From positions 1 through 45,808 of the IMG/VR virus record IMGVR_UViG_3300040801_001654: a DNA stretch of 45,808 nucleotides, one strand, 5' to 3'. Shown in pieces: positions 11,947 to 44,985 of this stretch. The stretch comes from a virus. A program made the position numbers and the translations under genes. The notes beneath the pieces are model-generated. The model was not told where the DNA came from and did not search any database. It was given only the letters and a program-made list of their open reading frames with translations. The number at the start of each line of letters is the position of its first letter. Position 1 is the stretch's first letter.

Positions 11947-12360
11947 TTAAAATGGTAGGTCGTTCTCTAAGTCTATCTCCTCATCAGGGTCGTTCCTTAT
12001 CTTACCCTTAGGTTTATTCTCTAGTCTTTCAATCTTTTCCTTAAGTTCTTTATTCTCTTTTTCTAACTCCTCAATCTCTTGCTTAAGGTTTCTTCTTGGT
12101 AGTTCAAAGTTCCACCAATCTCCGTCGTGAATTATCTTACCTGATATCTCAGTACCCTCATCCCAGTCATCAGTAACATTATCAAAGTCTAGCATTGACA
12201 ATCTACCATTGAACTCCATGTCATCTATACAGTTACTGTCCACCTCAAGTAGTACTTTCTTAAAAGGATTACCGTTCTTCGTTACCAACGGCGACCCATC
12301 TTTCTTAGTATTGTACGTACTAATACTCTCTATCTTAACATCTTTAATATTGTATTCCAT
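11947..12360 (-). CDS. Putative single-stranded DNA-binding protein (SSB-like acidic tip)
   Basis: C-terminus DPDEEIDLENDLPF resembles the bacterial SSB DDDIPF tip. The N-terminal ~90 aa are beta-rich. Lies in the recombination/replication block. Confidence 0.4.
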   Translation of the reverse strand: MEYNIKDVKIESISTYNTKKDGSPLVTKNGNPFKKVLLEVDSNCIDDMEFNGRLSMLDFDNVTDDWDEGTEISGKIIHDGDWWNFELPRRNLKQEIEELEKENKELKEKIERLENKPKGKIRNDPDEEIDLENDLPF

Positions 12361-12681: not shown

Positions 12682-12960
12682 TTATATAATGCCCATCTCC
12701 TCGGCACACACAGGGCACAGTCCATTAATGAGTATTATCTCTGGCGTGTCAGCACCACACCGACTACACCTACCCATTTCATTCTCAGGTACTTCTTCAT
12801 AGCCACAATTGTCGCAGATGAGGAAGTCGCTTGAGTTTCTCCAAACCATATCAGAGCCACACTCTGGACATATGTCTGGGTCTATCTGGTCGTACTCTAC
12901 CCACGAACCGTCTCCACCTCGGACACCGTTCTCATCGTACCCATAAGGTATGTTCTCCAT
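12682..12960 (-). CDS. Double zinc-ribbon protein
   Basis: CPECG...CDNCG and CSRCG...CPVC. Confidence 0.6.
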   Translation of the reverse strand: MENIPYGYDENGVRGGDGSWVEYDQIDPDICPECGSDMVWRNSSDFLICDNCGYEEVPENEMGRCSRCGADTPEIILINGLCPVCAEEMGII

Positions 12961-12987: not shown

Positions 12988-13011
12988 GGGGTGGTATTAA
13001 GACCCCACCCC
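12988..13011 (-). terminator. Hairpin terminator ending the amidoligase/ATP-grasp operon
   Basis: GGGGTGG (12988-12994) pairs with CCACCCC (13005-13011), 33 nt past the ATP-grasp stop. On the minus strand it is followed by the A/U-rich AUUAUAUAAAUU. Confidence 0.5.
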
Positions 13012-13043: not shown

Positions 13044-13946
13044 CTAGAAGTTTATAGACGTTTCGGTCTTAAACTCAAAGTCATAATTTAATTCGTTCAA
13101 CTCTCTGTGTTTCCATACATAATGTCTTGCCTTAGTATCCTCTGGTATATTCATATGTCTGGTTTCGTTTGTCATAAGTAACCAATCGAAGTACTCAGCG
13201 TACCTCTCTGCTGTGTATCCCTCTAAGCGTGGCGAAGTATTAACCTCACACACTACTGCTTTTGGCAGACTAGAGTTCAATGGGTCAGCCATTATATCCA
13301 CAGCACCGAAGTCCATGCCCAGCACCTCGATTGTTTTAACAGCAAGGTCTACTATATCCTTCCTGTATTGTTTCCAAGGTATTACCTCAAACGCATAGCC
13401 ATTGTCATGACTCCAGTTCTCTCCACGTGTCTCAGAAGTTTGGACTTTCTGTTGGACTATGAGAACCTTGCCATGACCAACGTGTACTCTATACTCGGTA
13501 GTCTTTGGATAGAACCTTGAGAAGTAAGGGTTCTCCATACTGGTAACCTTACCCCTATTACTCAAGAGTTCTGTTATATTATTAAAGAGCAAAAAGTCCT
13601 TACCTTTCTGATGAAAGGCAGGTCTTACCACAATGGGAAAATCAGTAGCACAAATAGTACCGACTGGTTCTGGGGTGGGTATTCCCCTTTCATATAGGTA
13701 TTCCCTACACCTTTTCTTATTACTCACAAGCCTTATCTTCTCAGCCCTGTTGTATTCTATAACTGGGTTGGTATCTATACTGGTAGTACAACCCCACCTA
13801 ATTATAATCCTACTATCAGGGTCTGGTTCATTGTTAAACCTATGCCTACTTAGTCTATACCAAGCAGGTTCTAAACCATTCTTCATCTTACTGAGTAGTT
13901 CTTCTATTGAACTCCTACTTGTTGTTTTAGTTATTACTGTATTCAT
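13044..13946 (-). CDS. ATP-grasp ligase (RimK-like)
   Basis: FPIVVRPAFHQKGKDFLLF, TEYRVHVGHGKVL and DFGAVDIM...VVCEVNTSP match the ATP-grasp/RimK pattern. Confidence 0.75.
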   Translation of the reverse strand: MNTVITKTTSRSSIEELLSKMKNGLEPAWYRLSRHRFNNEPDPDSRIIIRWGCTTSIDTNPVIEYNRAEKIRLVSNKKRCREYLYERGIPTPEPVGTICATDFPIVVRPAFHQKGKDFLLFNNITELLSNRGKVTSMENPYFSRFYPKTTEYRVHVGHGKVLIVQQKVQTSETRGENWSHDNGYAFEVIPWKQYRKDIVDLAVKTIEVLGMDFGAVDIMADPLNSSLPKAVVCEVNTSPRLEGYTAERYAEYFDWLLMTNETRHMNIPEDTKARHYVWKHRELNELNYDFEFKTETSINF

Positions 13947-13947
13947 A

Positions 13948-15726
13948 TTATTCCTCCACTAAGTTAGCAAAATACCCATAATCTCTCACACCTATCGGTG
14001 CTAGGGTATTATATATTCCTCCCACACTTCTCTCTTTCTGTTGTTCTGCTATAGCCAAGGCTTTCCTCTCGAACACCTTGTCCTTATCAATCTTTATCTT
14101 TGGTACAGTTATAGTCCTTCTAACTTTCTTTCCCTCTATTATCAGAGCATCTCTATCTAAGTAGTTAGCGAAGTCTATAAATCCCTTAGCCCTTTCCTTA
14201 ATTTTGTCTTTACTTATTCTCTCATTGAGTAGTTTGTATAACTTACTGTCTTCATTTAACAATTCCTCTCCCACTTTTATTATATCAGTCTGTTTGTTCT
14301 TGAGTATATATTCTAGTATCCTAGTTCTGAATAGTAATTGTTTCTTATTCTTAACAGCAGGAAATATCCTAAACTCTAGGGTGTTCCTAGTTATATTCAA
14401 CGCCTGTCTATGACCACTATCTATATAACAATCCTTCTCCTTAGCCTCACAGTATTCGTTCATAGCCCTGTCTGGGTACAAACTATATAGTAGTGGAAGA
14501 TACCCTCTTATATCTAAGAGTATCTCATGTGGTGTCCTCTCTGTGTCTGATATATGTATATGACCACCACACCTCTCACTTACCTGAGCCTCTAAGAGCG
14601 ATTCTAAGGGTGTTAAAATATCCTCGAGGATATCTATATCCAATGGTAACACTGGACTTACCAGTTCAAATCCTGACTCATCTAATGAGCCATCTCTTTC
14701 TGCTACCCACCCTGTATTCTTAAGTAATGACCTATTAACTATCTTTCTCCTTGCTGTAACATCTTCTTTCTCTACTTCATAACCTATCTTATACCTACTG
14801 TTATCACTCATATCTTGTCTGCCTATACCAGCGTGGTATTCTAAGATACCCCTTATATTACTGCACCTAGGACACACAAGTTCGTATTCATTTTCAAGTG
14901 TAGTACCACAACCCCTACAGCGTGGTCTACTATTACACTCCTTACATACATTTCTCCCACCCACACTCACTATATCATCTATCAATGTCATCTTACCACA
15001 GTTAGAACACTCCACATACTTATGCCTACACAATGGACATATAGTTTTCGAACCTAGTATAACCTCATCACAACCCTGACACTTCTTATCTACAAGTTCA
15101 TCACCTAGTAATTCTTTTAGTATATCGTACACCTTTTTATCTATTGATATACTCTTACCGAAGAACCTTGAATAAGCCCATGCGTAGTGGTCTTTGTTTC
15201 GGTTAGTCATTGACTTCCCCTCTCCCATTAACGCTGGTATTATTAAGGTATCCCTTTCAGCACAAGAGTATTCATCACCATTTATCACTGCCTCAAGCCA
15301 ATAGTATTCCTCATCATCAAAATCATTTATATCATTTCTTAAAGCAATCCTACTATCATACTCTGCCAACCTCTCGGTTATCCTCTCCACTGCTAGTTCT
15401 AACGGATTACTACCTGAGATATAGAACCTACTTGCCACACCCCAGTACACGAACTTCGTATTCCCTCCTATAGTTAGTATCTCTGTATCAAGTTCTTCTA
15501 CTCTTGATATCAAGGTGTCCACTCCTAACTGTTCGTGTTTAACCTTATCCTTATACAAGTTTACGAACTCTATATATATATCTGAGGTTGAGGTGTTATC
15601 AGCCAAGTACATATTAACCCTACGAATATCCTCCACTATAGGTAGCACTACGACCTTAGCATAATGGTCTAAGAGTTTACCAGCCACCTCATCTTTAAAC
15701 TCCTGACTTAACTTCTCGTACTCCAT
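13948..15726 (-). CDS. Amidoligase paralogue 2: N-terminal domain of unknown function plus three zinc ribbons plus a GS-like amidoligase domain
   Basis: CQGC..CPLC / CSNCG..CKEC / CRGCG..CPRC, then YKIGYEVEKED, ERDGSLDESGFELVSPVLPL, CGGHIHIS, LEFRIFPAV. Confidence 0.7.
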   Translation of the reverse strand: MEYEKLSQEFKDEVAGKLLDHYAKVVVLPIVEDIRRVNMYLADNTSTSDIYIEFVNLYKDKVKHEQLGVDTLISRVEELDTEILTIGGNTKFVYWGVASRFYISGSNPLELAVERITERLAEYDSRIALRNDINDFDDEEYYWLEAVINGDEYSCAERDTLIIPALMGEGKSMTNRNKDHYAWAYSRFFGKSISIDKKVYDILKELLGDELVDKKCQGCDEVILGSKTICPLCRHKYVECSNCGKMTLIDDIVSVGGRNVCKECNSRPRCRGCGTTLENEYELVCPRCSNIRGILEYHAGIGRQDMSDNSRYKIGYEVEKEDVTARRKIVNRSLLKNTGWVAERDGSLDESGFELVSPVLPLDIDILEDILTPLESLLEAQVSERCGGHIHISDTERTPHEILLDIRGYLPLLYSLYPDRAMNEYCEAKEKDCYIDSGHRQALNITRNTLEFRIFPAVKNKKQLLFRTRILEYILKNKQTDIIKVGEELLNEDSKLYKLLNERISKDKIKERAKGFIDFANYLDRDALIIEGKKVRRTITVPKIKIDKDKVFERKALAIAEQQKERSVGGIYNTLAPIGVRDYGYFANLVEE

Positions 15727-15747
15727 AACTTTAAGATTATAATTTAA

Positions 15748-16785
15748 CTAACTCGGTAGGTAGAACTTGAGTATGCTCTCAAACTTAGCCCACTTACCAC
15801 TATTTATATCAACTTGTTTACCCTCTACTATCAAATCATTTACCTCATTTAATTCATCTAAACAGTTAAAGCATAACGGATAACCCCACTGGGTTATACC
15901 AGCATCTTCCTCAACCTCGTCTATTTCACAGCCACACCCCTCGCAGAATATATCCTTATTATTCTCATATAGTTTCTGATAACTAGACCACGGATATTCC
16001 TCCTCATACTTATCCTCCCAACTATCATCTTCAAAATCACTGTAGTAAGAGGGATACCTCTGCTTGTAGCAATTACTTTTAACAAGTGTTGTATCTTTCT
16101 TATACTTTATCTCCTTAGGTTCTCCTATCATCTTGCCTTTCATATCTAACACCACCAGTGTATCGTTTGTGAATTCAAATGGTTCTTCCTCTGAATTGTA
16201 GTGTCCAGCCACAAACTCCAGCACATCTTTCATTGAACTGAACATTATCATACCCAACTTTTCCATTGTTAAACAATACAGTGGATTATCATGCCTACTC
16301 ACATATATTCTATCTTCGTTCTTATCCCACGCTATAAAGTTAGCACTGCCCTTAATTTCTTTTAGCATATCCCAATTCTTTTCCTGAACTATCGGTATAA
16401 GTACCTCACTATCCACCTCATACTCATAGTCTAACTTCTTAGCAATCTCCTTATGATTGCTTATCACACCATTATGAACTAAAAAGGTATCCTTTCTATT
16501 TAATGGGTGTGCGTTGCGTTCATTTACCTCTCCAGTTGTAGCCAATCTAGTATGACCAAGCCACAAATCACCCTCAACTTGTCTGAACTTCTTTCTCTTT
16601 AAGAACTGACTTGCTGGTATGGTATCCTTGAACAGAGAATGGGTTTCGCTATCCTTATCAACTACCAGCACACCAGTACTATCCCTACCTCTGCTTTCAT
16701 TTGCTAATACTAAGGACTTGAATATCCTCTTAGCAACTTCTCGGTTTTCTGGTTTAACATTTAACATACCTGCTATTCCACACAT
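15748..16785 (-). CDS. Class-II (Ntn) glutamine amidotransferase with a C-terminal zinc ribbon
   Basis: MCGIAGML supplies the Cys1 nucleophile. Also RGRDSTG, GHTRLATTG..NERNAHP, LVHNGVISN. C-terminal CEGCGC...CFNC. Confidence 0.85.
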   Translation of the reverse strand: MCGIAGMLNVKPENREVAKRIFKSLVLANESRGRDSTGVLVVDKDSETHSLFKDTIPASQFLKRKKFRQVEGDLWLGHTRLATTGEVNERNAHPLNRKDTFLVHNGVISNHKEIAKKLDYEYEVDSEVLIPIVQEKNWDMLKEIKGSANFIAWDKNEDRIYVSRHDNPLYCLTMEKLGMIMFSSMKDVLEFVAGHYNSEEEPFEFTNDTLVVLDMKGKMIGEPKEIKYKKDTTLVKSNCYKQRYPSYYSDFEDDSWEDKYEEEYPWSSYQKLYENNKDIFCEGCGCEIDEVEEDAGITQWGYPLCFNCLDELNEVNDLIVEGKQVDINSGKWAKFESILKFYLPS

Positions 16786-16808
16786 ATTTGTTTAGTCCTC
16801 AGTTTAAT

Positions 16809-17999
16809 TTATTTATTTAGTATTTCTTCAACCTCATCAGGTCTTATCTCTAGCATAATATCATCTATATCCCTAGCGTATCTGACTATGTTAGAATAGA
16901 ACTCCTTGTAGGTTATGTTGTAAGTATCAAGATGTGTCTTAACAATCTTTCTTAACCTATCACTATCACTCAATTCTTGTAATCCCTGTTCAACTGTTGT
17001 AGCCTTGTGTGATAACATATACTTGAGTAATCTAAATCTATTCATCAAGTCCTCCTTATCTCTAGGTGGGTCAAATATCCTGAACTCCAATCCACTGCCC
17101 TGATAACTTCCCCTCTTACTAAGGGCGTATCTTCCAGCCTGTTTATATATATTCTTATTCTTAGGTTCGCAATAATGGTTCGCTGTTCTTTTAGGAAACA
17201 GAGCATATATCATTGGTAAATACCCAGCCATATCATCTATAAGTTCGTCAGGCGTTCTGTACTTGTCTGACACTGTCATATGACCACCACAGTTATCTGA
17301 ATAACTTGTGTTTATCAGTTGGTTCAGCAACCCCTTGCTAAACAGTTCATCTAAATACCCTATCTTTAAGGGGTATATAGGACTAACAGCCTCAAATCCC
17401 CAATCATAATCTAACGAGGCATCTTCCTCCATAACCCAGCCAGTTTTATCTAATAAGTCATACTTATCCACCTCATCTTTAAAATACTCATCTTCTCTCT
17501 CCAGTTCAACCCCTACAGCATATCTATAACCCCCTGTAAGATTATCCCTACCCTTACCACTATGATAACTAAATGTATTATTGCTTTTATCATGTTCGTT
17601 GTAACAATCTTCACAGTAAGTACAATCATCTCTCTCAGAATAACATAAGTTATCAATATGCGTAGTCCAGCCACAATCTTCACAACTACCATAACTATCA
17701 CAATAGCAATCTTCACACACCCTATCATCTTCACTATCAATGTAATATGTGCAATCCGTTTGAACCCACTCATCACAATGAAAGCATTGAGTATAGTGTT
17801 TATTTAAACAGTTATCACATACATATCCACCATTGTCAACATATGTCATATCATCAGTTAAGTGATATTCTCCACACTCCAGACACTTGCTAACACACTC
17901 ATCACAAAATTGTTCACCATCAATTTCTATAAAGGTTATGTTTATATTGCTATCAAAGACCCCACCACAATTAACGCACTCTAGTTTTATGTCTTTCAT
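16809..17999 (-). CDS. Amidoligase paralogue 1: four tandem zinc ribbons plus a GS-like amidoligase domain
   Basis: Four CxxC(G)-N17-25-CxxC units in aa 1-135, then YAVGVELEREDE, EEDASLDYDWGFEAVSPIYPL, CGGHMTVS, GLEFRIFDPP. Confidence 0.7.
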   Translation of the reverse strand: MKDIKLECVNCGGVFDSNINITFIEIDGEQFCDECVSKCLECGEYHLTDDMTYVDNGGYVCDNCLNKHYTQCFHCDEWVQTDCTYYIDSEDDRVCEDCYCDSYGSCEDCGWTTHIDNLCYSERDDCTYCEDCYNEHDKSNNTFSYHSGKGRDNLTGGYRYAVGVELEREDEYFKDEVDKYDLLDKTGWVMEEDASLDYDWGFEAVSPIYPLKIGYLDELFSKGLLNQLINTSYSDNCGGHMTVSDKYRTPDELIDDMAGYLPMIYALFPKRTANHYCEPKNKNIYKQAGRYALSKRGSYQGSGLEFRIFDPPRDKEDLMNRFRLLKYMLSHKATTVEQGLQELSDSDRLRKIVKTHLDTYNITYKEFYSNIVRYARDIDDIMLEIRPDEVEEILNK

Positions 18000-18183
18000 A
18001 ACATCTAAAATTATAACTTAGTCGCTTTTAACTTAACACAGTTTTATACCCCCTACACTAACAAATTATATTGTATATGAAACACCAAAAGTACCCCTGA
18101 CCTATTCAATATATTTAGCCAGTATCCCATAATCCAATGTATAATTATATTGTATTATGAGAATTCTTATTCTATACCCTTAG

Positions 18184-18199
18184 TGTTTCATATGAAACA
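18184..18199. promoter_or_regulatory. Perfect 16-bp palindrome TGTTTCATATGAAACA in the operon leader (operator or RNA hairpin)
   Basis: Read directly. A half-site copy ATATGAAACA lies at 18075-18084. Both sit between the promoter (18229-18257) and ATG 17999. Confidence 0.4.
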
Positions 18200-18228
18200 T
18201 TATCTTTTACCTCTCAACTATCTGATAC

Positions 18229-18257
18229 AGTATATCATAACTGTACCAAACTGTCAA
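18229..18257 (-). promoter_or_regulatory. sigma70-type promoter TTGACA-N17-TATACT driving the amidoligase operon
   Basis: Minus strand reads TTGACAgtttggtacagttatgaTATACTgtat. It shares the 16-nt ttatgatatactgtat with the promoter at 18642-18670. Confidence 0.65.
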
Positions 18258-18277
18258 TATCCTATAGTTATCCGATA

Positions 18278-18583
18278 CTATAGGTCGTATCCCAATCCAT
18301 ACCCTTCTAAAATACATGTACCATGATATATAGCCTGTCGCCTTACATCATCACTATCCTTGCTATGTGTATATACCTCCTTGTAATCATACACATTATC
18401 TATTACTGTATAATCTAAGATTTTACCATTTAAAACCTTAGCAACAGCGTAATTATCCTCAATGATATACAGCCTATATATACCTCTCTTAGTTTGGTCG
18501 ATAGCGTTATCTCTAAAGAAACTAAGACTATACGGGCTAACCTTTTCATTGAGTAAACTACCGAAGTAATCTACTTTTCTCAT
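18278..18583 (-). CDS. Early protein, function unknown
   Basis: 101-aa ORF downstream of two tandem promoters. Confidence 0.6.
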   Translation of the reverse strand: MRKVDYFGSLLNEKVSPYSLSFFRDNAIDQTKRGIYRLYIIEDNYAVAKVLNGKILDYTVIDNVYDYKEVYTHSKDSDDVRRQAIYHGTCILEGYGLGYDL

Positions 18584-18641
18584 AATGAAAGAGATTAAAA
18601 TTATTTAGTTGTACTATCACACTTATTGAAAAGTGTAATAC

Positions 18642-18670
18642 AGTATATCATAATTGAAAGTAATTGTCAA
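18642..18670 (-). promoter_or_regulatory. sigma70-type promoter TTGACA-N17-TATACT
   Basis: Minus strand reads TTGACAattactttcaattatgaTATACTgtat. Confidence 0.65.
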
Positions 18671-18722
18671 GTACATTATGATATATTGTAAAACAGCCTT
18701 TTTCTCTTAACTTTCTAACCCC

Positions 18723-18751
18723 ATTATACAGGAAGTGTAATCAGGTGTCAA
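18723..18751 (-). promoter_or_regulatory. sigma70-type promoter TTGACA-N17-TATAAT (in tandem with 18642-18670)
   Basis: Minus strand reads TTGACAcctgattacacttcctgTATAAT. Confidence 0.6.
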
Positions 18752-18834
18752 GTATAATTTTAGACTTGTAGTATTACACACTACAGGCTTAATTGTCAGG
18801 TTTAAATGTACTATAGGTTAGTATCCTATATAGT

Positions 18835-18856
18835 GAGCCTATAGTTGTATAGGCTC
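18835..18856 (-). terminator. Hairpin GAGCCTATA-gttg-TATAGGCTC, 13 nt past the stop of 18870..19076
   Basis: 9-bp perfect stem and 4-nt loop. No U-tract, so it may be a processing or stability element rather than a classical terminator. Confidence 0.35.
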
Positions 18857-18869
18857 ATACTATAAGATA

Positions 18870-19076
18870 TTATCTCAACTCTGATATATCAATATCAGGC
18901 TGGTAATCATCATCATCTACTATCTCAAGAATATCCTTAGATAGTACACTAAGAGGCTCGTTTAGGCTTTCATACTCCTCAATCCACGCCTCATACTCCT
19001 CATCAGTTATAGGATATTCAATGTCCTCAATTGATAATATACCCTCAATACCCTCAGAGATTAAATAATTATCCAT
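18870..19076 (-). CDS. Highly acidic early protein (DNA-mimic / anti-restriction candidate)
   Basis: 68 aa with about 23 D/E against 2 K/R. Lies in the early promoter region. Confidence 0.55.
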   Translation of the reverse strand: MDNYLISEGIEGILSIEDIEYPITDEEYEAWIEEYESLNEPLSVLSKDILEIVDDDDYQPDIDISELR

Positions 19077-19134
19077 ATTACTATAGGATAAAGTTAAATA
19101 AGTTGTAAAGAACTATAGGTTATTAGCCTATATA

Positions 19135-19160
19135 CAGAGCCTATAACTAGATAGGCTCTG
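19135..19160 (-). terminator. Hairpin CAGAGCCTAT-aactag-ATAGGCTCTG, 11 nt past the stop of 19172..19495
   Basis: 10-bp perfect stem. Shares the GAGCCTAT core with the hairpin at 18835. Confidence 0.35.
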
Positions 19161-19171
19161 ACTATAGGATA

Positions 19172-19495
19172 CTACTCGATATATGCTATATCGTTTATAT
19201 AGTACATAATAGCCTCTTGTTTCATCTCTGCTTTGAGGTCTAAGGCTATCTTAATTACTTGTTCAACCTCATCATCTGATAGGCTTTCACACCTACTAAC
19301 AAGTCTTATAGTATTCTCTACTATAAGTTGCTCATTATTGGCTATATAATAGCCTTTACCCTCTATTCTATCACAACCCCCAAACAGTTTAGATAGACTA
19401 TAGGCTATATCCTCTACATATTCACTATTATCTATAGGCTCATCTAAGCCTATAGTAGAGGGAACTACTATTGAAACACTATAGGGTAGTTTCAT
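19172..19495 (-). CDS. Early protein, function unknown
   Basis: 107-aa ORF downstream of the promoter at 19556-19584. Confidence 0.6.
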   Translation of the reverse strand: MKLPYSVSIVVPSTIGLDEPIDNSEYVEDIAYSLSKLFGGCDRIEGKGYYIANNEQLIVENTIRLVSRCESLSDDEVEQVIKIALDLKAEMKQEAIMYYINDIAYIE

Positions 19496-19555
19496 ATCTT
19501 TAAAATTATTAAATTATATAAAGAGCCTCAAGCCTTTTAGTTGCCTGACTATACC

Positions 19556-19584
19556 AATATACAATGAGGCATGGTAGAAGTCAA
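19556..19584 (-). promoter_or_regulatory. sigma70-type promoter TTGACT-N17-TATATT
   Basis: Minus strand reads TTGACTtctaccatgcctcattgTATATT. Confidence 0.5.
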
Positions 19585-19592
19585 GAAGATAA

Positions 19593-19622
19593 TTGTTATA
19601 GGTCTAGTTGCTCTGGTATAAT
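19593..19622 (+). promoter_or_regulatory. Orphan rightward promoter TTGTTA-N18-(TGg)TATAAT facing an ORF-free stretch
   Basis: TTGTTA 19593-19598. Extended -10 TGgTATAAT 19614-19622. Back to back with the leftward promoter at 19556-19584. Confidence 0.4.
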
Positions 19623-19796
19623 ATAATGATAATATAGCCTTGTAAAAAGTAAATTGAATATACAAGAATAATATTATAGGCTCATGTTTTCAAGTATATC
19701 ACCAGTTTAAAAGACTTTTAGCATAGAGTACACTATAGGCTAGTAGTTATTTTCGCCAATCACCCCTGCTCACTATAGGTCTATATACATAATAAT

Positions 19797-19863
19797 ACCC
19801 TATAGTAATACTACTCATACCAGAGATTGAAAGTTTTACTATGGGTCGTTTGGGGTTACCCCT
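19797..19863 (+). repeat. Copy A of a ~67-nt tripartite unit CCTATAGTAA..GAGATTGAAA..GGGGTT
   Basis: cCCTATAGTAAtactactcataccaGAGATTGAAAgttttactatgggtcgtttGGGGTTacccc. Followed by TTATTTTT. Confidence 0.5.
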
Positions 19864-19907
19864 TATTTTTGCCTATAGTAAAGCACTATCACCCTATTAT
19901 ATAATGT

Positions 19908-19975
19908 ATCCTATAGTAAAGGGGGGGTACGACACCGAGATTGAAATTTCCCAGGGGGGCGGGGTTCCACCCTGT
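19908..19975 (+). repeat. Copy B of the tripartite unit
   Basis: tCCTATAGTAAagggggggtacgacaccGAGATTGAAAtttcccaggggggcGGGGTTccaccc. Confidence 0.5.
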
Positions 19976-19998
19976 TAATACGGGACAATTGGCACCTA

Positions 19999-20013
19999 TG
20001 TACGCACACTATG
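19999..20013. promoter_or_regulatory. Operator-like direct repeat TGTACGCACA(c)TATGG, copy 1 (copy 2 at 20051-20065 lies inside the RHH promoter spacer)
   Basis: The two copies are 52 nt apart, and copy 2 fills the spacer of the promoter at 20043-20071. Confidence 0.4.
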
Positions 20014-20042
20014 GGGTAAAAGTTATATAGGGCGAGTAGGTA

Positions 20043-20071
20043 TTGCGCTTTGTACGCACATATGGTATAAT
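20043..20071 (+). promoter_or_regulatory. Promoter TTGCGC-N17-(TGg)TATAAT for the RHH gene
   Basis: TTGCGC 20043-20048, TGgTATAAT 20063-20071, then AAGGGG RBS and ATG 20100. Confidence 0.5.
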
Positions 20072-20099
20072 AGGTTATTAACTTATAAGGGGTATTGGT

Positions 20100-20297
20100 A
20101 TGAAGGAGAGCAGGGTACATTTGCGCACAGAGCCTACAGTAAAGAGGTTGTGGGAGAGGGAGGCTGAGAAGCGTCATTTAACGTTGAGTGAGTTTATACA
20201 CGAGGCTGTGAGGGAGTATATAGAGTTTGGTAATGTAAGGGTGAAGAAGGAGGCAGTGGGGAATGCGCCAAAAAAGCACGTAACCTATTTTAAGTAG
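20100..20297 (+). CDS. Ribbon-helix-helix (CopG/Arc/ParD-like) DNA-binding protein
   Basis: SRVHLRTEP (beta strand) - TVKRLWEREAEKRH (helix) - LTLSEFIHEAVREYI (helix). It is the only rightward gene inside the leftward arm. Confidence 0.6.
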   Translation: MKESRVHLRTEPTVKRLWEREAEKRHLTLSEFIHEAVREYIEFGNVRVKKEAVGNAPKKHVTYFK

Positions 20298-20439
20298 GTT
20301 GTATCATAGGGAGTAGTAGTAGTAGAATAAGGGAGAGTAGCACTGCCATGCCCAGTTTACGTGGGCTATCCAGTAGGTGTATAAACACGGGTACTAGGAC
20401 TAGTAGTACGAACGCTTGTATCATTAATGTTCTTTTCAT
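20290..20439 (-). CDS. Possible 49-aa two-TM peptide
   Basis: Hand translation: MKRTLMIQAFVLLVLVPVFIHLLDSPRKLGMAVLLSLILLLLLPMIQPT*. Its 3' end overlaps the RHH 3' end by 8 nt. No SD. Confidence 0.3.
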   Translation of the reverse strand: MKRTLMIQAFVLLVLVPVFIHLLDSPRKLGMAVLLSLILLLLLPMIQPT

Positions 20440-20456
20440 AATAATAAAGGTTTAAT

Positions 20457-20594
20457 TTATTTACGACTTTTAAACGCCACCACAGGAATCATTAGGATGA
20501 CTATGGTAAACACTAGCAGTCCCCACGAGAAGTCTGTTTGGGCTCCCCCCAGGGTAGCGTAGTAGTGTTGTCGTTCTGCTTGGTAGGTAGTCAT
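20457..20594 (-). CDS. Possible 45-aa single-TM peptide coupled to the exonuclease gene
   Basis: ATG overlaps the exonuclease stop (TAATG). TM segment WGLLVFTIVILMIPVVAF. Confidence 0.35.
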   Translation of the reverse strand: MTTYQAERQHYYATLGGAQTDFSWGLLVFTIVILMIPVVAFKSRK

Positions 20595-21361
20595 TAGCCT
20601 CTTGAATCCATATAATTTAAATCAGGATTACGGTATATCTTGCGCCCTTTAGTCCACCCTCCGCAATCCAGGCATTGGTATCGTTTACGTTTACCTGTCT
20701 TAGTAGCGTAGAATCCTCCTTTACGCAGGTTGTGAGACCCACACTTAGGGCAGCATTCAGGCTGGTCGTCTATTACGGCTAGACTTGGGTGATTACTCAT
20801 CCACGGTCTTAGCTCGTAGTAGAGGTCTTCTAGTGCTTCAACGTCTGCTTTACAATAGTCTTTCATATGGTCCCAGTCTTTTCTAACTCCATTAAGGCAT
20901 CCTTTAATAACTTCTATGCCTCCCATATCTTCTTTTAAGCGAAGGTCCATAGTCTTACAAAGGTGCTTAAGGCTGTTAGAAGAGAACCCAGCGACTCTAC
21001 GAGCCACTTTAAGGGTGTCTACTGTAGAGCTAGGCTTAGGTGGTTCCATTTTATGGTACATCATTCTAGCGTGCGCCTTTTTAATATCATATCTATCTCC
21101 ATTATGGGCTACCAGTATGTCTGCTTCATTGAATAGTTCGTGTAGTTTCTCCACTACGTGTATATCGTTATTAACTCCTGGTTCCCAGTCCTCAAAATCA
21201 TCCTGTCCTATAACGTGGGGTATCTTAGCGTCCGCCCACTTGTATGCGAAGCATAGTATCTGCCAGTCTTCCACTACATCTATAGCGTCTGACTTCCACA
21301 ATCTCCAGTTGTAGCTGATTATAGGGCTTATCTCAATATCAAAGAATAGTATTTTAGCCAT
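20594..21361 (-). CDS. RNase H-fold 3'-5' exonuclease (DnaQ/PolB-exo-like) with a C-terminal zinc ribbon
   Basis: Start moved to MAKILFFDIEISP (ExoI DxE). HNGDRYD is ExoII-like and YCKADVEAL is ExoIII-like. C-terminal CPKCG...CLDCG. Confidence 0.7.
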   Translation of the reverse strand: MAKILFFDIEISPIISYNWRLWKSDAIDVVEDWQILCFAYKWADAKIPHVIGQDDFEDWEPGVNNDIHVVEKLHELFNEADILVAHNGDRYDIKKAHARMMYHKMEPPKPSSTVDTLKVARRVAGFSSNSLKHLCKTMDLRLKEDMGGIEVIKGCLNGVRKDWDHMKDYCKADVEALEDLYYELRPWMSNHPSLAVIDDQPECCPKCGSHNLRKGGFYATKTGKRKRYQCLDCGGWTKGRKIYRNPDLNYMDSRG

Positions 21362-21602
21362 TATTTTGTTCCTGTAAGAGTTTAATAAACTCCTTAGCGT
21401 CTTTAATCCTCTCAAATACCATAGGGTGTTCATTCCACCTTTCTGACACCACCACTCTTTCTTCCACACGCTTATTAAACAGACCACCAACAACTATGTT
21501 TTCTATAACGGCTGGCCTGTAATGCTCTACCTTATAGCCCCAACTATCAAAAACCCAGTTCCTCTTACTAAGGGGCACTTTTTTAATTCTCCAATCTTTC
21601 AT
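21354..21602 (-). CDS. Hypothetical protein
   Basis: 82-aa ORF. Its stop overlaps the next ATG (ATGGCTAA). Confidence 0.55.
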   Translation of the reverse strand: MKDWRIKKVPLSKRNWVFDSWGYKVEHYRPAVIENIVVGGLFNKRVEERVVVSERWNEHPMVFERIKDAKEFIKLLQEQNNG

Positions 21603-37854: not shown

Positions 37855-39474
37855 ATGGCAAAAAGCCTTAATAGAGAAAAATATACGATGCGAAGGTACG
37901 ACCTTATGGGTAGTATGAAGCAATCTACTAACCCCTTTCTTATGAACGACAACGAGTTTACTTATTTAAGAAATATATCTTACGACGAGATAGGTTCTGT
38001 TAGTAAGGACGGAGGGTATACTCAGCTTGGTGCTGACCTAGACGCTTCGGGAGCTATTGATTTACTGCACGATTATGTTGATTCGGACGGACAGCATAAT
38101 CTTTTGGCAATATCTAATGGTAAGATTTATAAGTATGACTCAGGTTCTTGGACAGAGATAACTCAGTTTAACGACTGGGTCACAGACAGTGAGGCAGATG
38201 CTGACACCACCTCTGGTTCTGAAAGGGTTTTGTATTTAGAGGGGGACGGGAGTTTGTTTACTGCAGACACAAAAAGTTCGGCTGTTAATAGAAATGGAAC
38301 GGCTTATATAATAAACGAGCTGGACGGATTGTGGTATACGGATGGTAACTCAATGACCTCCGTTAAAATAGATAATGGAGGCTCAGAGGTGTTGGCAAAG
38401 TATATGACCGTGGTAAATGGAGAACTCTATATTGCAAATTGTTCTGGGGTACACAGTGCAAACAACGTGGTTTATACCGCAGGTGGTGGACAAACCTTTT
38501 ATGTACCTTCGGAGGAGGACCATGACACATACGCCACAACCAACAACATAATAACGGTTAATGATGCAATAACAGGTATAACAGGATTCCAAGGTACGGT
38601 TATATTCTTTACGGAGGAGTCTATGTATCTCTTTAACCCACAGAATGCCGAGGTTGTAGAGATAGCAAGTATAGGGTGTACAGACCATAATTCTATACAG
38701 GAAATTAATGGAGTTTTATATTGGATTAACAGGGATGGTGTATACAGGTTTAATGGGGAAAATATTCCAGAACTTATATCACTACCAATAGTAAACTGGG
38801 CCACCAATTCTTTATGGAGACTTATAGATGGGGGAAGTTGGGGAGACAACCCAGCAGTTAGCTTTGAGGGTAAGTATATGGTTTATGTAGGAGATATGGC
38901 AGGTACTATGCCAGGAGACACGGGTGCGTTGTCAGATATAGTGCTGGTATATGATACATATAGAGATGTGTGGTACTTTTTGACAGACTATCCAGTAAGG
39001 TTAATGACCAGGTTTGTTAATAGTGACGGCAACTTAAGGTTAATGATGGGAAGTAAGGATGAGGCGGCAGTGTTCCAAAAGGGCTATACTTATACCTCAG
39101 ACGGGAGCGCTATAACGATGGTTGTAAGAACAAAATACTTTAACTTTGATATGCCTGAGAACGAAAAGGTTTTCAGTGATTTCTTGGCTACATATAGGCC
39201 AGAGGGGGAGTCAGAAAAATACTTAACGGTTAAGATTGCTACCAATGGTACTAACAATTATGAGGAAATTATAGGGAGTACTACCAATACTAAATTAGAA
39301 CTAGATGGGGTTGCAGGAACAGAGTTTCAGTTAGAGAGAGCTGCCCTTAAAGGAACAAGGGGTAGGACATTGTCTTATGAGTTTAGCAATAGTGACTCAG
39401 GAGTCAATGTGACCCTATTAGGGTATACACAACAGTACAGGTACATGAATAATAATATGAACTTTTCAGGATAA
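37855..39474 (+). CDS. Tail structural protein (nozzle/tubular or baseplate-like)
   Basis: 539-aa ORF in the tail module. No motif recognised. Confidence 0.55.
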   Translation: MAKSLNREKYTMRRYDLMGSMKQSTNPFLMNDNEFTYLRNISYDEIGSVSKDGGYTQLGADLDASGAIDLLHDYVDSDGQHNLLAISNGKIYKYDSGSWTEITQFNDWVTDSEADADTTSGSERVLYLEGDGSLFTADTKSSAVNRNGTAYIINELDGLWYTDGNSMTSVKIDNGGSEVLAKYMTVVNGELYIANCSGVHSANNVVYTAGGGQTFYVPSEEDHDTYATTNNIITVNDAITGITGFQGTVIFFTEESMYLFNPQNAEVVEIASIGCTDHNSIQEINGVLYWINRDGVYRFNGENIPELISLPIVNWATNSLWRLIDGGSWGDNPAVSFEGKYMVYVGDMAGTMPGDTGALSDIVLVYDTYRDVWYFLTDYPVRLMTRFVNSDGNLRLMMGSKDEAAVFQKGYTYTSDGSAITMVVRTKYFNFDMPENEKVFSDFLATYRPEGESEKYLTVKIATNGTNNYEEIIGSTTNTKLELDGVAGTEFQLERAALKGTRGRTLSYEFSNSDSGVNVTLLGYTQQYRYMNNNMNFSG

Positions 39475-40511
39475 TGGTATCTGGAATATACGACAGTAAA
39501 GGAAAGCCGATTAAGACGACTTTTCCTACAATAGAAAATAGAATGTATGATACCGTTATAGGTTCTTTAGATGTGGCTTCAAAAGCAGGTGCCCCTGCTA
39601 CAGGTGGAAAGGGAGTACTCGAGAACAGGGTAGGGCAGAGTACTTTTATAGGAACGATTAGTGTAAAGGATAACGGGGGCACTGAAAAGGTTCGCATGGG
39701 TAAAATAGGCGTAGGGGAGTGGGGCTTAACGGTGTATGATGGTAACCTTATTGGTGGAACTATAGAGATAGGAGATGGGGACGATTCGTTCTTTGCAGAT
39801 GAAACAGGTATATGGGCAGGGGATGAGGATTTTGATGATGCACCATTTAGTGTTGATATGCAGGGTAACCTAATAGCCACTAGTGGAACTATAGGGGACT
39901 TTACCATAGAAAGTGATAGGTTGTATGGAGGAACTTTGTCAACTGCAAGGACTGTGTCGGCAGGTAGTACTGGTGTTATAATGGATACGGCAGGGCTAAG
40001 GGGTTATGACTCTGTATTGGGAAAGACCTTTGATTTGCCAACAGATGGCAGTGCGCCAGAGTTTAGTAGTGGTATAATTAAAGAGACTATATTTGAATTA
40101 CAAACGAGTTCAATTATTAGGACGTCAGAAACTGTAGGGGATGGTACCTCAGACAGTGATGGTGTGTTAATGAATGACACTGGTATATACGCCTGTACTA
40201 CTAACCAGAGCCTAGCCAATGCTAACGTAAAAATACTAGCATCAGGTGAGGCTACGTTTAGTGGTAGTGTCAAGGGTGGTATGACAGACTTTATGACTGG
40301 CACGGGGTATTTCTTAGGAGAGAGTGGCGGTGTATATAAATTCAGTATTGGTGACCCTAGTGGTAATCACCTATCTTGGGATGATGAGTACTTAAGGGTA
40401 AAGGGTAATATAGAGCTTACGTCACCACTAACTAACATAGGTTATGCGTTCGCCAGTTTACCAATACCACCAACAACGGTAGGGTTTAATAGTCCAAGTA
40501 GTAATAGTTAA
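39474..40511 (+). CDS. Tail fibre-like protein
   Basis: 345 aa, Gly/Thr/Ser-rich. ATG overlaps the upstream stop (TAATG). Confidence 0.55.
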   Translation: MVSGIYDSKGKPIKTTFPTIENRMYDTVIGSLDVASKAGAPATGGKGVLENRVGQSTFIGTISVKDNGGTEKVRMGKIGVGEWGLTVYDGNLIGGTIEIGDGDDSFFADETGIWAGDEDFDDAPFSVDMQGNLIATSGTIGDFTIESDRLYGGTLSTARTVSAGSTGVIMDTAGLRGYDSVLGKTFDLPTDGSAPEFSSGIIKETIFELQTSSIIRTSETVGDGTSDSDGVLMNDTGIYACTTNQSLANANVKILASGEATFSGSVKGGMTDFMTGTGYFLGESGGVYKFSIGDPSGNHLSWDDEYLRVKGNIELTSPLTNIGYAFASLPIPPTTVGFNSPSSNS

Positions 40512-42728: not shown

Positions 42729-43475
42729 ATGACACTCAGTGAAATCAGAAATGATGTTGGTTCTAAGATAAACCAATATAGCGATGAGACGGATACCTTT
42801 GTTGAGGGGTTTATAACAGAGACAGAGTTAGATAGGTGGATTAACCAAACCTTTGAAGAACTCTATATGTGGTATGCCTTAGCAAATAAGGGTAGATTCT
42901 CTACCAAGGCTACTGTTGATACAGTGGAAGACCAGGGAGTATATACTTTTGGTGGTGATGCTACCGACCTACTTGCCGTAGAAAGCGTGGGCATAAAGTA
43001 TTCTTCAGACGATGATTACTATAAGACCGCTTACCCTAACACTCCAAAAAGATTTTACTTAGAGGGAGGAGAAGAGGCAGCAGAAGGTGCCCCTATGTAC
43101 TTTGAAAGACAGATATACGACAGTGTAAATGAGGAGTATGTATTAGCAATAGAGTTTCCAGAGGACTGTATACCAGACACAGCCGTTACAGACGGACTTC
43201 AAATGTGGTATATTGAGAGACCACCAGAGCTATCAGGAGACACAGACGAACCACAAAAGTTACCTAAAGAACTACACAAATACATAGTAATAGGAGCTTC
43301 AATACCAGCCCTGGAAAAGATGGGTGAGTATGACCAGGCTGCTTATTTAGAGGGAAAGTTTAACACCAAGGTTAAATCGTTCTTTATACAGGACCAGACT
43401 AAAACAGCTAAGGGGGTTAAAGTTGTTAAACCAACAAGGGAAAGCATTAATAAGTTTTATAAGAGAATACGATAA
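42729..43475 (+). CDS. Virion-module protein
   Basis: 248-aa ORF. Confidence 0.6.
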   Translation: MTLSEIRNDVGSKINQYSDETDTFVEGFITETELDRWINQTFEELYMWYALANKGRFSTKATVDTVEDQGVYTFGGDATDLLAVESVGIKYSSDDDYYKTAYPNTPKRFYLEGGEEAAEGAPMYFERQIYDSVNEEYVLAIEFPEDCIPDTAVTDGLQMWYIERPPELSGDTDEPQKLPKELHKYIVIGASIPALEKMGEYDQAAYLEGKFNTKVKSFFIQDQTKTAKGVKVVKPTRESINKFYKRIR

Positions 43476-44245: not shown

Positions 44246-44264
44246 TTTTTGATTTAATATTATT

Positions 44265-44984: not shown

Positions 44985-44985
44985 A

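Follow-up and report, generated by a model that had tools for sequence, protein, structure and literature searches.

A four-gene cluster in an uncultured phage is probably (we put it at roughly 55%) a variant of the phage module that combines amidoligase, class-II glutamine amidotransferase (GATase-II) and ATP-grasp ligase; it would make and trim gamma-glutamyl-type amide bonds on an acceptor encoded elsewhere. The module type is known from a prediction made in 2009 and from more than 300 cultured-phage records, and what sets the present version apart is the duplication of the amidoligase, the clade-specific zinc ribbons and the absence of two genes. The window, by which we mean the whole stretch of DNA that was analysed, is a record of 45,808 nt with an exact 117 nt terminal direct repeat; thus, the genome is about 45,691 bp (~45.7 kb) in length. 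The cluster occupies 4,956 bp or 10.8% of it, in line with the 5 kb and 11% given in an earlier, sequence-only reading of this DNA. The features are as follows.

18229..18257, minus strand: sigma-70-type promoter-like site 5' of g1 (TTGACA-17-TGnTATACT; consensus match)
18000..18228, minus strand: long 5' leader of g1 (predicted RNA structure, z = -3.64 versus shuffles)
16809..17999, minus strand: g1, amidoligase paralogue 1, 396 aa (zinc-ribbon array and GS/GCS2-type catalytic domain)
17604..17978, minus strand: N-terminal zinc-ribbon array of g1, eight CxxC, residues 8-132 (from the translation)
15748..16785, minus strand: g2, stand-alone class-II (Ntn, Cys1) glutamine amidotransferase, 345 aa, with a C-terminal zinc ribbon (C281-C308)
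13948..15726, minus strand: g3, amidoligase paralogue 2, 592 aa (Pfam, AlphaFold model, Foldseek)
13044..13946, minus strand: g4, RimK/LysX/CphA-like ATP-grasp ligase, 300 aa (PHROG, profile, fold)
12988..13011, minus strand: G+C-rich hairpin after g4, a possible weak terminator or processing site (sequence and fold)
12682..12960, minus strand: double zinc-ribbon protein, 92 aa, immediately downstream of the cluster

Operon layout and boundaries

The four genes are adjacent and co-directional, all on the minus strand; their coordinates agree exactly with those first read, and the intergenic gaps, given as 1-23 nt, measure 23, 21 and 1 nt. All four are under purifying selection (dN/dS 0.08-0.31, with the closest relative, L095, as reference). 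The operon is located inside a block of replication and recombination genes.

The promoter-like site 5' of g1 (18257-18229) matches the consensus at 11 of 12 positions, carries a TG extension and is flanked by two CCTATAG motifs, and a near-identical copy lies at 18670-18642. The consensus promoter claimed earlier is thus present as a site, but such matches are no more frequent in this region than chance predicts (24 found, 23 expected). The leader, estimated at ~220 nt, extends ~225 nt to the ATG of g1; it has no match in Rfam and can be aligned only in patches with the leaders of two relatives, L001 and L006. The hairpin that had been taken as the other bound of the operon is real, with a 7 bp G+C-rich stem and a 10 nt loop, but its status as a canonical terminator is not borne out: there is no U-run 3' of the stem, the terminator scan did not call it and its fold beats shuffles only modestly (z = -1.87). 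As a boundary of the operon we therefore consider it weak. Genes in the same direction carry on 3' of it, starting with the 92 aa double zinc-ribbon protein, whose Pfam matches are to generic zinc ribbons, every one below its cut-off. L001 and L006 have an ORF of similar size (95-105 aa) in the same place, a match in position and size only, and membership of this protein in the module is uncertain. To call the operon self-contained was an overstatement, given that the hairpin falls short of a canonical terminator and that relatives carry the same downstream genes.

Two amidoligases, an amidotransferase and an ATP-grasp ligase

Genes g1 and g3 encode paralogous ligases that have the glutamine-synthetase/GCS2 fold, and no acidic, His or Arg residue that is invariant in the family is missing from either. 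The motif series reported for both is present in the two translations (GVELERED, DASLDYDWGFEAVSPIYPL, CGGHM and LEFRIF in g1; GYEVEKED, DGSLDESGFELVSPVLPL, CGGHI and LEFRIF in g3). Their assignment as GS-like amidoligases holds: g3 scores 30.1 bits against Pfam Amidoligase_2 (5.9e-7; gathering cut-off 22), and g1, which alone has no match in Pfam, is its clear paralogue (BLASTP identity of 32% over 373 residues, E = 4e-52). Missing catalytic residues had been named as a ground for refutation; both proteins keep all the family-invariant residues, which number 17 in g1 by a 121-sequence family alignment.

The AF2 model of g3 (pLDDT 94.9) comprises a clade-specific N-domain (1-205) without relatives among 1.84e9 representatives, a zinc-ribbon array (C216-C288) and the GS/GCS2-type catalytic domain (~296-520). 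In Foldseek searches of the PDB it matches YbdK/GCS2 (2e-4), glutamine synthetases and gamma-glutamylmethylamide synthetase (GmaS); the modest scores (best E = 2e-4, TM 0.2-0.33) reflect a catalytic domain reduced to a minimal core within a 592 aa multi-domain model. A search of BFVD retrieves dozens of phage proteins labelled 'Amidoligase enzyme'. For g1, orthologues were found in L095 (dN/dS 0.08), L001 and L006. Of its eight CxxC pairs, the six from C39 to C132 are invariant across the four orthologues; the first two vary, and the N-terminal segment that bears them is missing from the L001 orthologue.

The product of g2 is an Ntn amidohydrolase of the Cys1 type; the residues that bind the alpha-amino and alpha-carboxylate groups of glutamine or of a gamma-glutamyl substrate are retained in its pocket. 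The protein begins MCGIAG, matches Pfam GATase_6 (1.8e-18) and GATase_7 (1.7e-13), and aligns with the N-domains of GlmS and PurF in the PDB sequences; it has no synthase domain. The class-II assignment made at first sight is confirmed by the intact Cys2 and Arg/Asn-Gly/Asp pocket, with C2, R80, N105, G106 and D125 invariant in 98 phage homologues. The zinc-ribbon cysteines are likewise invariant in orthologues.

The fourth protein is an ATP-grasp ligase, as had been proposed, and belongs to a branch whose characterized members attach Glu or Asp at a terminal carboxylate. It matches phrog_2599 (5.4e-27), and its AF2 model (pLDDT 93.9) is nearest in fold to RimK, ArgX/LysX and Ddl (TM 0.6-0.69). 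Profile comparison with the PDB gives cyanophycin synthetase (2.5e-11) and RimK (2.4e-9), and the family matches also include MptN, CofF, CphA and LysX. Residues K167, D217, E234 and N236 are invariant. Nevertheless, g4 falls far under the curated RimK-family cut-offs (31 bits versus 143; 14.6 versus 21).

Relatives and the core cassette

In nearly all of the ~80 IMG/VR viral loci surveyed, the amidoligase gene is directly followed by a GATase-II gene, and the pair also occurs on a plasmid-like contig with relaxase and ParM. No other gene cluster accompanies the pair in more than ~20% of these loci. The neighbourhood check suggested earlier finds the full order of amidoligase, GATase-II, amidoligase and ATP-grasp ligase in L095, L001 and L006 only (33-87% identity). 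Duplication of the amidoligase around one GATase has arisen independently at least three times. In the subfamily to which the amidoligases of the window belong, only 21 of the 72 scanned members of at least 480 aa reach Pfam PF12224 at E < 0.001.

A GGACT-like gene is present in 14 loci, either as a separate gene or, in three independent cases (L002, L056 and L124), as a gamma-glutamyl(amine) cyclotransferase domain fused to GATase-II; the L002 fusion matches Pfam GGACT at 2.9e-16. A known synthase domain is absent from all the long GATase-II partners. These fusions in related sequences point to gamma-glutamyl-amide chemistry, an argument borrowed from relatives, as the window itself has no GGACT-like gene.

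Among cultured phages, tblastn with g2 and g4 matches 346 and 301 records, respectively (LUZ24-like, phiEco32-like and others), and genes beside these relatives are annotated as COOH-NH2 ligase, amidoligase and gamma-glutamyl cyclotransferase; in Bas87 the last is annotated within the cluster. The rarity of the module had therefore been overstated, given its prediction by Iyer et al. and its annotation in hundreds of cultured phages. The accompanying claim that no phage version has a defined substrate or product agrees with our literature search, which turned up no paper defining an experimental substrate for the module.

Proposed pathway and alternatives

Beyond fold and active-site conservation, the pathway is inferred. 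The carboxylate that g1 and g3 would each phosphorylate is most probably the gamma-carboxylate of glutamate, which they would couple to an amine to give gamma-Glu-NH-R; that the two amidoligases catalyze two different ligation steps was put too firmly earlier, although it is plausible. The RimK-like g4 may then lengthen the free alpha-carboxylate by another amino acid, and g2 would hydrolyse gamma-glutamyl amides as an eraser or trimmer or, alternatively, supply ammonia from glutamine. Promoters of the host type would drive the module along with the leftward genes for replication and recombination. Since no conserved partner gene accompanies the amidoligase/GATase pair, the probable acceptor is a molecule of the host or one that is otherwise universal, for which we consider small amines such as a polyamine, and lysines or amines carried by a macromolecule, as candidates. 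The clade-specific zinc-ribbon arrays would be well suited to bringing g1, g2 and g3 into contact with a macromolecule or with one another. A ligase and a hydrolase acting on the same bond look futile unless the tag is transient or capped.

It is possible, although unlikely, that the cluster is instead a two-component glutamine-dependent amidotransferase, in which g2 splits free glutamine and passes the ammonia to an acyl-phosphate formed by g1 or g3 (net R-COOH to R-CONH2, for example on a peptide, on a precursor of the cell wall or on the carboxylate of a cofactor), with the addition of an amino acid by g4 as a step of its own. Consistent with this, g2 retains all of the class-II glutaminase machinery and is most similar in sequence to the glutaminase domains of GlmS, AsnB and PurF, and a single GATase is found between two amidoligases in several lineages; separate genes would also satisfy the need of a glutaminase for a free N-terminal Cys1. 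The order of amidoligase then GATase fits such a two-subunit enzyme and the gamma-glutamyl pathway equally well. However, the cyclotransferase that is fused to or accompanies GATase-II in relatives has no role in ammonia transfer, EgtC sets a precedent for a stand-alone class-II domain as a plain gamma-glutamyl hydrolase and, to our knowledge, no characterized class-II amidotransferase works with a separate GS-fold synthase.

We consider it rather improbable that the ligases attach glutamate or short peptides to a host or phage protein with g2 as the eraser, along the lines of RimK acting on ribosomal protein S6, of PafA/Dop pupylation or of tubulin-type glutamylation. The g4 relatives RimK, LysX and CphA all work on a protein or polymer C-terminus, and Iyer et al. 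(2009) are cited for a prediction of peptide tagging in related systems. All amidoligase family members have variable N-terminal extensions of 120-450 aa, and the C-terminus of some g3 orthologues resembles an SSB tip (...DLPF), suggesting that they dock to replication proteins. The zinc-ribbon arrays are conserved in orthologues, but they are clade-specific and missing from most of the family. Moreover, no conserved tag or carrier gene was found alongside the cassette in the ~80 loci, and the C-terminal -EE of g3, a candidate RimK-type substrate, is not conserved in orthologues whose loci also have the ATP-grasp gene.

Decoration of a modified phage base with an amino acid or amide, as protection against restriction, is very improbable. 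In viral metagenomes, Lee et al. (2021; PMC8989533) found that genes for thymidine hypermodification share loci with genes for amidoligase and amidotransferase; the operon is within the replication/recombination block, and zinc ribbons could bind nucleic acid. Nevertheless, scans against PHROG and Pfam that covered most ORFs of at least 90 aa in the window (five late-region ORFs excepted) reveal no 5-HMUDK, aGPT-Pplase, dUMP/dCMP hydroxymethylase, TET/JBP or other nucleotide-modifying gene, and the cassette occurs on the plasmid-like contig and in many phages not known for hypermodified DNA. An auxiliary gene set for nitrogen metabolism or a cell-wall-modifying superinfection exclusion, readings repeated in genome descriptions (PMC10580990, citing Iyer 2009 for phiEco32) and echoed by PHROG 'moron/AMG' labels, is hardly to be expected, since none of the four proteins is a housekeeping-enzyme equivalog (all curated cut-offs are missed widely) or shows evidence of a signal peptide or cell-wall binding, and the window has no PADLOC match.

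Comparison with known systems

The gamma-glutamyl pathway that we favour follows the logic of EgtA/EgtC, PuuA/PuuD and PafA/Dop, in which an ATP-dependent ligase of GS/GCS type makes a gamma-glutamyl amide and a Cys-nucleophile amidohydrolase later takes it off. The window shows no orthology to these systems. PuuD is a class-I GATase, and Pup or another tag protein is absent. EgtC is a stand-alone class-II GATase-like gamma-glutamyl hydrolase that acts after the GCS-type ligase EgtA; g2 is also such a stand-alone domain and matches it weakly. RimK, LysX/ArgX and the G-domain of cyanophycin synthetase, the best structural and profile matches of g4, share its fold and ATP/Mg2+ residues at an identity of only 16-18%, with scores far below curated family cut-offs. 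This likeness does not imply S6, LysW or cyanophycin as the substrate; the N-terminal 45 and C-terminal 40 residues of g4 are clade-specific.

The two-gene cassette of amidoligase and GATase-II that metagenomic phages and plasmid-like elements carry has the same catalytic motifs and order as g3 with g2 and g1 with g2, to which the window adds a second amidoligase and the ATP-grasp ligase. The phiEco32-/LUZ24-type cluster, which Iyer et al. (2009; Iyer, Abhiman, Burroughs & Aravind) predicted and for which UFV-P2, Bas87 and Klebsiella phage Asterion have annotated examples, consists of COOH-NH2 ligase, Amidoligase_2, GATase-II, RimK-like ATP-grasp ligase and gamma-glutamyl cyclotransferase. Both have a GS-superfamily amidoligase, a stand-alone class-II GATase and a RimK-like ATP-grasp ligase, and both adjoin primase/helicase and DNA-polymerase exonuclease genes. 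There are distinct differences. The first is in gene content: the window lacks the COOH-NH2 ligase and GGACT/GGCT, and its second GS-type ligase is a duplicated amidoligase. The second is in the amidoligases themselves, which belong to a different subfamily, as those of Bas87 and the Klebsiella phage give no match to them at E <= 10. The third is the zinc-ribbon modules, which g1, g2 and g3 bear and the other members do not.

Organization of the cluster

Four genes on the minus strand form the cluster, in the order amidoligase, class-II amidotransferase (GATase-II), amidoligase and RimK-like ATP-grasp ligase.

Genes of the cluster (coordinates, strand, description)
16809-17999, minus strand, g1, amidoligase, 396 aa
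15748-16785, minus strand, g2, class-II amidotransferase, 345 aa
13948-15726, minus strand, g3, amidoligase, 592 aa
13044-13946, minus strand, g4, RimK-like ATP-grasp ligase, 300 aa

The sequence-only reading had delimited these ORFs and described a motif series in the amidoligases; the ORFs are present as described and the series is found in the translations. The intergenic gaps from g1 to g4 are 23, 21 and 1 nt. The genes had also been described as a self-contained operon bounded by a consensus promoter and a hairpin, a claim that stands only in part. Upstream of g1, a TTGACA-17-TGnTATACT element at 18257-18229 matches the consensus at 11 of 12 positions, but promoter-like sites are, overall, no more numerous in the region than chance predicts. 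The hairpin at 12988-13011 is indeed present (7-bp stem, 10-nt loop), but it lacks a U-run, is only modestly stable (z = -1.87) and was not called by the terminator scan. Since the co-directional array also continues beyond it, self-containment is not established.

The region upstream of the operon has several further features. The promoter-like element occurs three times (18229-18257, 18642-18670 and 19693-19716), the second copy being near-identical and lying 413 nt upstream of the operon site. The g1 leader (18000-18222, minus strand) has a folding energy of -47.9 kcal/mol (z = -3.64 versus shuffled sequence). A riboswitch or known RNA in this 225-nt leader was considered and rejected: the structure is stable, but there is no Rfam match and conservation is poor across three relatives, the leaders of the homologous loci L001 and L006 being alignable with it in patches only. 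No Shine-Dalgarno sequence precedes g1, g3 or the gene for a 92-aa zinc-ribbon protein directly downstream of g4 (upstream of 17999, 15726 and 12960, minus strand), and all three share TTATAAT 11-13 nt 5' of the ATG; upstream of g2 and g4 lie GAGGA and GGAGGA. The TTATAAT elements could be internal promoters with very short leaders, or could reflect a duplicated upstream region.

The heptamer CCTATAG is found 32 times in the window, versus 12.9 +/- 4.3 expected. Half of the copies (16) fall within 1.65 kb (18261-19916), in a stretch of small early ORFs that immediately precedes the operon; two of the 16 flank the -35 element of the operon promoter-like site. Extended to (A)CACTATAGG, the motif is similar to the T7/SP6/K11-type promoter core, yet both orientations are present; the array may consist of operators or early promoters. 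A 91-nt direct repeat (18800-18890 and 19102-19192, 74% identity) carries an internal hairpin in each copy and precedes successive small ORFs. Where the small early genes give way to the DNA-polymerase exonuclease gene (19500-20600), the G+C content rises from 0.33 to 0.44 without a convincing ORF on either strand.

Genome context

An exact 117-nt terminal direct repeat (1-117 and 45692-45808) indicates a closed genome, circular or terminally redundant, of ~45,691 bp. The cluster occupies 10.8% of this ~45.7-kb genome, in agreement with the earlier estimate of ~11%. It lies inside a leftward replication and recombination block that also encodes RusA, a PD-(D/E)XK-type exonuclease, a probable SSB-like protein, a DNA-polymerase exonuclease subunit, DnaB and DnaD. 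PHROG and Pfam scans covered most window ORFs of at least 90 aa, except for five late-region ORFs (39474-40511, 42729-45654), and among the ORFs covered there were no nucleotide-hypermodification genes. The ORF at 20594-21493 is a homologue of the 'DNA polymerase exonuclease subunit' (phrog_403, 1e-77); the scanned ORFs of the whole genome yielded no polymerase catalytic subunit. The 92-aa zinc-ribbon protein was considered as a LysW-like carrier and rejected, having only generic sub-threshold zinc-ribbon matches and no acidic C-terminus.

Among INPHARED phages there is neither a near-identical DNA match to the operon nor a protein-level match to g3, and TerL identity to cultured phages does not exceed 36%. 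By these comparisons, no cultured phage is close to the window phage. Neither tRNAs nor Rfam families were found in the window, and with no tRNAs and such a divergent TerL, no host was assigned. L095, the closest relative, is a contig of 6.3 kb from the bin of a Thiopseudomonas MAG; as host evidence this is weak.

The amidoligases g1 and g3

The two amidoligases share 32% identity over 373 residues (E = 4e-52), in an alignment spanning both the Cys-rich N-terminal and the catalytic parts. g3 matches Pfam Amidoligase_2 (PF12224) with 30.1 bits at a gathering cut-off of 22, only residues 332-410 being aligned. g1 has no Pfam match on its own and is placed in the family because of its paralogy with g3 and its family-invariant residues. 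An alignment of 121 amidoligase sequences, g1 included, has 17 invariant positions, among them (g3 numbering) E317, E319, E321, D345, S347, G352, E354, C386, G387, G388, H389, R420, E451, R453, F455 and R467. The resulting ExE...E...H...ExR...R pattern is what a GS-type site forming acyl phosphates would need, and we infer the residue-by-residue mapping onto the metal and phosphate ligands of GS.

The AlphaFold2 model of g3 (pLDDT 94.9, pTM 0.82) has significant PDB neighbours only in the GS/GCS2 fold, namely YbdK (2e-4), glutamine synthetases and gamma-glutamylmethylamide synthetase; the TM-scores are low (0.2-0.33), owing to the multi-domain query. Because the amidoligase family profile found nothing significant among PDB sequences, the fold assignment rests on predicted structure. 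Searched against predicted viral structures, the model has dozens of matches to phage proteins that bear the name 'Amidoligase enzyme'; their sources are Pseudomonas phage tf, Cellulophaga phi14:2 and crAss-like phages as well as Cronobacter, Vibrio, Aeromonas and Arthrobacter phages. The gene neighbourhood by which Amidoligase_2 members are recognized, with a GATase-II-like or AIG2/GGCT gene close by, is found here in the form of g2 between g1 and g3. Taken together, the Pfam score of g3, the GS/GCS2-fold model, the paralogy and the invariant residues bear out the earlier identification of both proteins as GS-like amidoligases.

Zinc-ribbon arrays with 6-8 CxxC motifs are limited to the window's own clade. 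The N-terminal domain of g3 has no relatives among 1.84e9 representatives, and domain fusions in N-terminal extensions, considered as a substrate clue, were found in none of 72 amidoligase homologues. The C-terminus of g3, ...YGYFANLVEE, was considered as an S6-like substrate of g4 and rejected as a general rule, because orthologues accompanied by an ATP-grasp gene end in ...SSKKS, ...KNIK or ...DLPF. Several g3 orthologues of sister phages run past ...LVEE and end in ...VPLPF, ...ELPF or ...DLPF (proteins P0005, P0007 and P0014). A 137-aa ORF of the window (11947-12360, minus strand) ends in ...DEEIDLENDLPF, similar to the acidic C-terminal tip of SSB. The SSB-tip-like ends of the g3 orthologues suggest that these may dock to the same partner as SSB. 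A different tail, ...(S/D)LGA-COOH, is kept in many otherwise divergent phage amidoligases (for example at loci L014, L049, L067, L082 and L087, and in proteins P0029, P0031, P0033, P0034 and P0038).

The amidotransferase g2 and the ATP-grasp ligase g4

g2 is a stand-alone class-II GATase domain (Pfam GATase_6, 1.8e-18) whose PDB sequence matches are the N-domains of GlmS and PurF; it also gives a weak match to EgtC. It starts with MCGIAG, which places the catalytic Cys directly after the initiator Met. This C2 is invariant in 98 phage homologues, as are R80, N105, G106 and D125, which align with HTRWAT, HNG and TDTEV of GlmS. The invariant residues are the nucleophile, the oxyanion hole and the holders of the alpha-carboxylate and alpha-amino groups of glutamine or a gamma-glutamyl substrate; the pocket still recognizes a free alpha-amino acid moiety. 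A fused synthase or acceptor domain in the style of GlmS, PurF, AsnB or GltB is absent from g2, which has only ~115 extra residues, and no known synthase domain was found in any of the longer homologues. The C-terminal extension carries one conserved zinc ribbon. With the GATase_6 match and both Cys2 and the glutamine-pocket residues intact, g2 is the class-II amidotransferase that it had been taken for.

The assignment of g4 to the RimK-type/ATP-grasp enzymes holds for its fold and its ATP-Mg2+ residues (K167, D217, E234 and N236, all invariant), while the curated RimK cut-offs are missed. The AlphaFold2 model (pLDDT 93.9) has RimK, ArgX/LysX and Ddl as its nearest structures, with RimK, ArgX and LysX at TM 0.62-0.69, and the family profile matches the cyanophycin synthetase G-domain (2.5e-11) and RimK (2.4e-9) in the PDB. 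g4 scores below the curated RimK models TIGR00768 (31.3 vs 143.4 bits) and PF08443 (14.6 vs 21), and its NCBIfam matches to RimK, MptN, CofF, CphA and LysX all fall far under the cut-offs. g4 is a related branch and not an equivalog of any of these five.

Compared with L095, the four genes have dN/dS values of 0.08-0.31, and all are under purifying selection. The dS of g4 (13044-13946) against L095 4153-5055 is 0.24, whereas those of g1, g2 and g3 are 1.1-2.0; the low value may point to the ATP-grasp gene having been exchanged recently, or to an unusual codon constraint.

Distribution of the module

A profile search of IMG/VR found at least 198 loci with the amidoligase/GATase-II pair, 80 of which were fetched for inspection; in nearly all of the 80, the GATase-II gene directly follows the amidoligase gene. 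The pair also lies on a plasmid-like or conjugative contig (L009/L010, 8001-10120) with relaxase (LPD7) and ParM-like genes and an integrase, so the cassette is not restricted to phages. A conserved third partner was rejected: beyond the pair, no gene family occurs in more than about one-fifth of the loci, and those that do recur nearby are of a generic phage kind (GroEL, exonuclease, terminase, ERF and primase). The two-gene cassette thus forms the autonomous core, and the genes beside it do not encode its acceptor.

A second amidoligase follows the GATase in several lineages, and a neighbour-joining tree implies at least three independent duplications. The sequence-only reading had called for a search for the same four-gene order in other phages; the order was found, but only in the window's own clade (L095, L001 and L006), whereas the two-gene core is widespread. 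Identity to the window is 87% for g4 of L095, 48-66% for L001 and 33-42% for L006. Since synteny among these phages extends far outside the operon, the conserved gene order partly reflects shared ancestry.

Proposed chemistry

The cluster had been described as having no known substrate, and our literature search agrees: full texts on the amidoligase/GATase-II/ATP-grasp module offer genome annotations and a computational prediction reportedly made by Iyer and colleagues in 2009, with no defined substrate or product. Amidoligase and amidotransferase genes have been noted near thymidine-hypermodification genes, their function there being unknown (Lee et al., 2021; PMC8989533). Such a context was rejected for the window, where no 5-HMUDK, aGPT-Pplase, dUMP hydroxymethylase or TET/JBP was detected by PHROG and Pfam scans covering most ORFs of at least 90 aa. 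A defence-system identity was likewise rejected, with no PADLOC match for g1 to g4 or the 92-aa zinc-ribbon protein.

GATase-II is fused to a gamma-glutamyl(amine) cyclotransferase (GGACT) in three separate loci (L002 9344-11056, with a Pfam GGACT match of 2.9e-16, L056 8480-9526 and L124 8938-9996), and stand-alone cyclotransferases accompany the module in others. Both enzymes cleave gamma-glutamyl amides, and the fusions therefore narrow the chemistry to this class of compound. GS-fold ligases such as GS, GCS, PuuA and PafA characteristically activate the gamma-carboxylate of glutamate, and characterised precedents for pairing a GS/GCS ligase with a later-acting gamma-glutamyl hydrolase are EgtA/EgtC, PuuA/PuuD and PafA/Dop. 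The most economical reading is a ligase, an eraser or trimmer, and an extender. The amidoligases would make gamma-Glu-NH-R, GATase-II (elsewhere also GGACT) would trim or remove the gamma-glutamyl unit, and the RimK-like ligase would add to the free alpha-carboxylate, an extension that could shield the adduct from enzymes requiring a free carboxylate.

The main rival is that GATase-II and the amidoligase form a two-subunit glutamine-dependent amidotransferase. This would account for the strict amidoligase-then-GATase order, because Cys1 must stay N-terminal, but it leaves the cyclotransferase fusions unexplained.

Within the ligase, eraser and extender scheme, R may be a small amine, such as a host polyamine, or an amine on a macromolecule. 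A specific version of the latter, which we consider unlikely (roughly one chance in eight), has the zinc-ribbon-armed g1 and g3 together with the RimK-like ligase writing a short gamma/alpha-linked glutamyl (peptide) tag on a macromolecular amine, to be erased by the Cys1 amidohydrolase. A lysine in a host or replisome protein, or else a DNA base bearing an amine, would serve as the target. If true, the phage would encode a reversible glutamylation system of the Pup or tubulin kind, used for host takeover or defence evasion.

Comparison with known phage clusters

By tblastn, cultured-phage records match g4 in 301 cases and g2 in 346, mainly in LUZ24-like Pseudomonas and phiEco32-like Escherichia phages and also in Vibrio, Aeromonas, Cronobacter and Klebsiella phages. 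Thus, g2 and g4 reach cultured phages, whereas an amidoligase search of INPHARED with g3 does not. The annotated order in Bas87 and Klebsiella phage Asterion is COOH-NH2 ligase, amidoligase, GATase and RimK-like ligase, adjoining a primase/helicase gene; of the two records, only that of Bas87 annotates a gamma-glutamyl cyclotransferase as fifth gene, and UFV-P2 is a further cultured phage with an annotated cluster. An ATP-grasp profile scan of a genome collection found 43 mostly phage-sized contigs in many bacterial and some archaeal MAG bins. In about 30 of these, a GATase-II gene lies no more than a few kilobases away; the canonical COOH-NH2 ligase plus amidoligase is present in about 21.

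Among tailed-phage enzyme sets without a known substrate, the module is one of the most widespread: over 300 records of cultured phages, therapeutic Pseudomonas phages and E. coli BASEL phages among them, have g2/g4 relatives. Solving its function would reveal a new phage-host biochemical interaction. As the window phage is uncultured and has no assigned host, the cultured phiEco32-like and LUZ24-like relatives are the better experimental entry.

The window resembles the phiEco32-type cluster in having an amidoligase, GATase-II and a RimK-like ATP-grasp ligase beside replication genes. It differs in lacking the PF14395-type COOH-NH2 ligase, since phmmer with the Bas87 and Klebsiella queries matched no window ORF at E <= 10 but matched 21-23 other loci. 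It also lacks AIG2/GGACT, the GGACT HMM matching 14 loci other than the window, and its amidoligases and those of phiEco32-type phages fall into different subfamilies. The window is therefore a variant of a known, widespread phage module and not categorically new, distinguished by a duplicated amidoligase, zinc-ribbon arrays and the presence of neither COOH-NH2 ligase nor cyclotransferase. What it contributes is comparative information and not a new system: the amidoligase/GATase pair is the minimal unit, repeatedly elaborated by ligase duplication.
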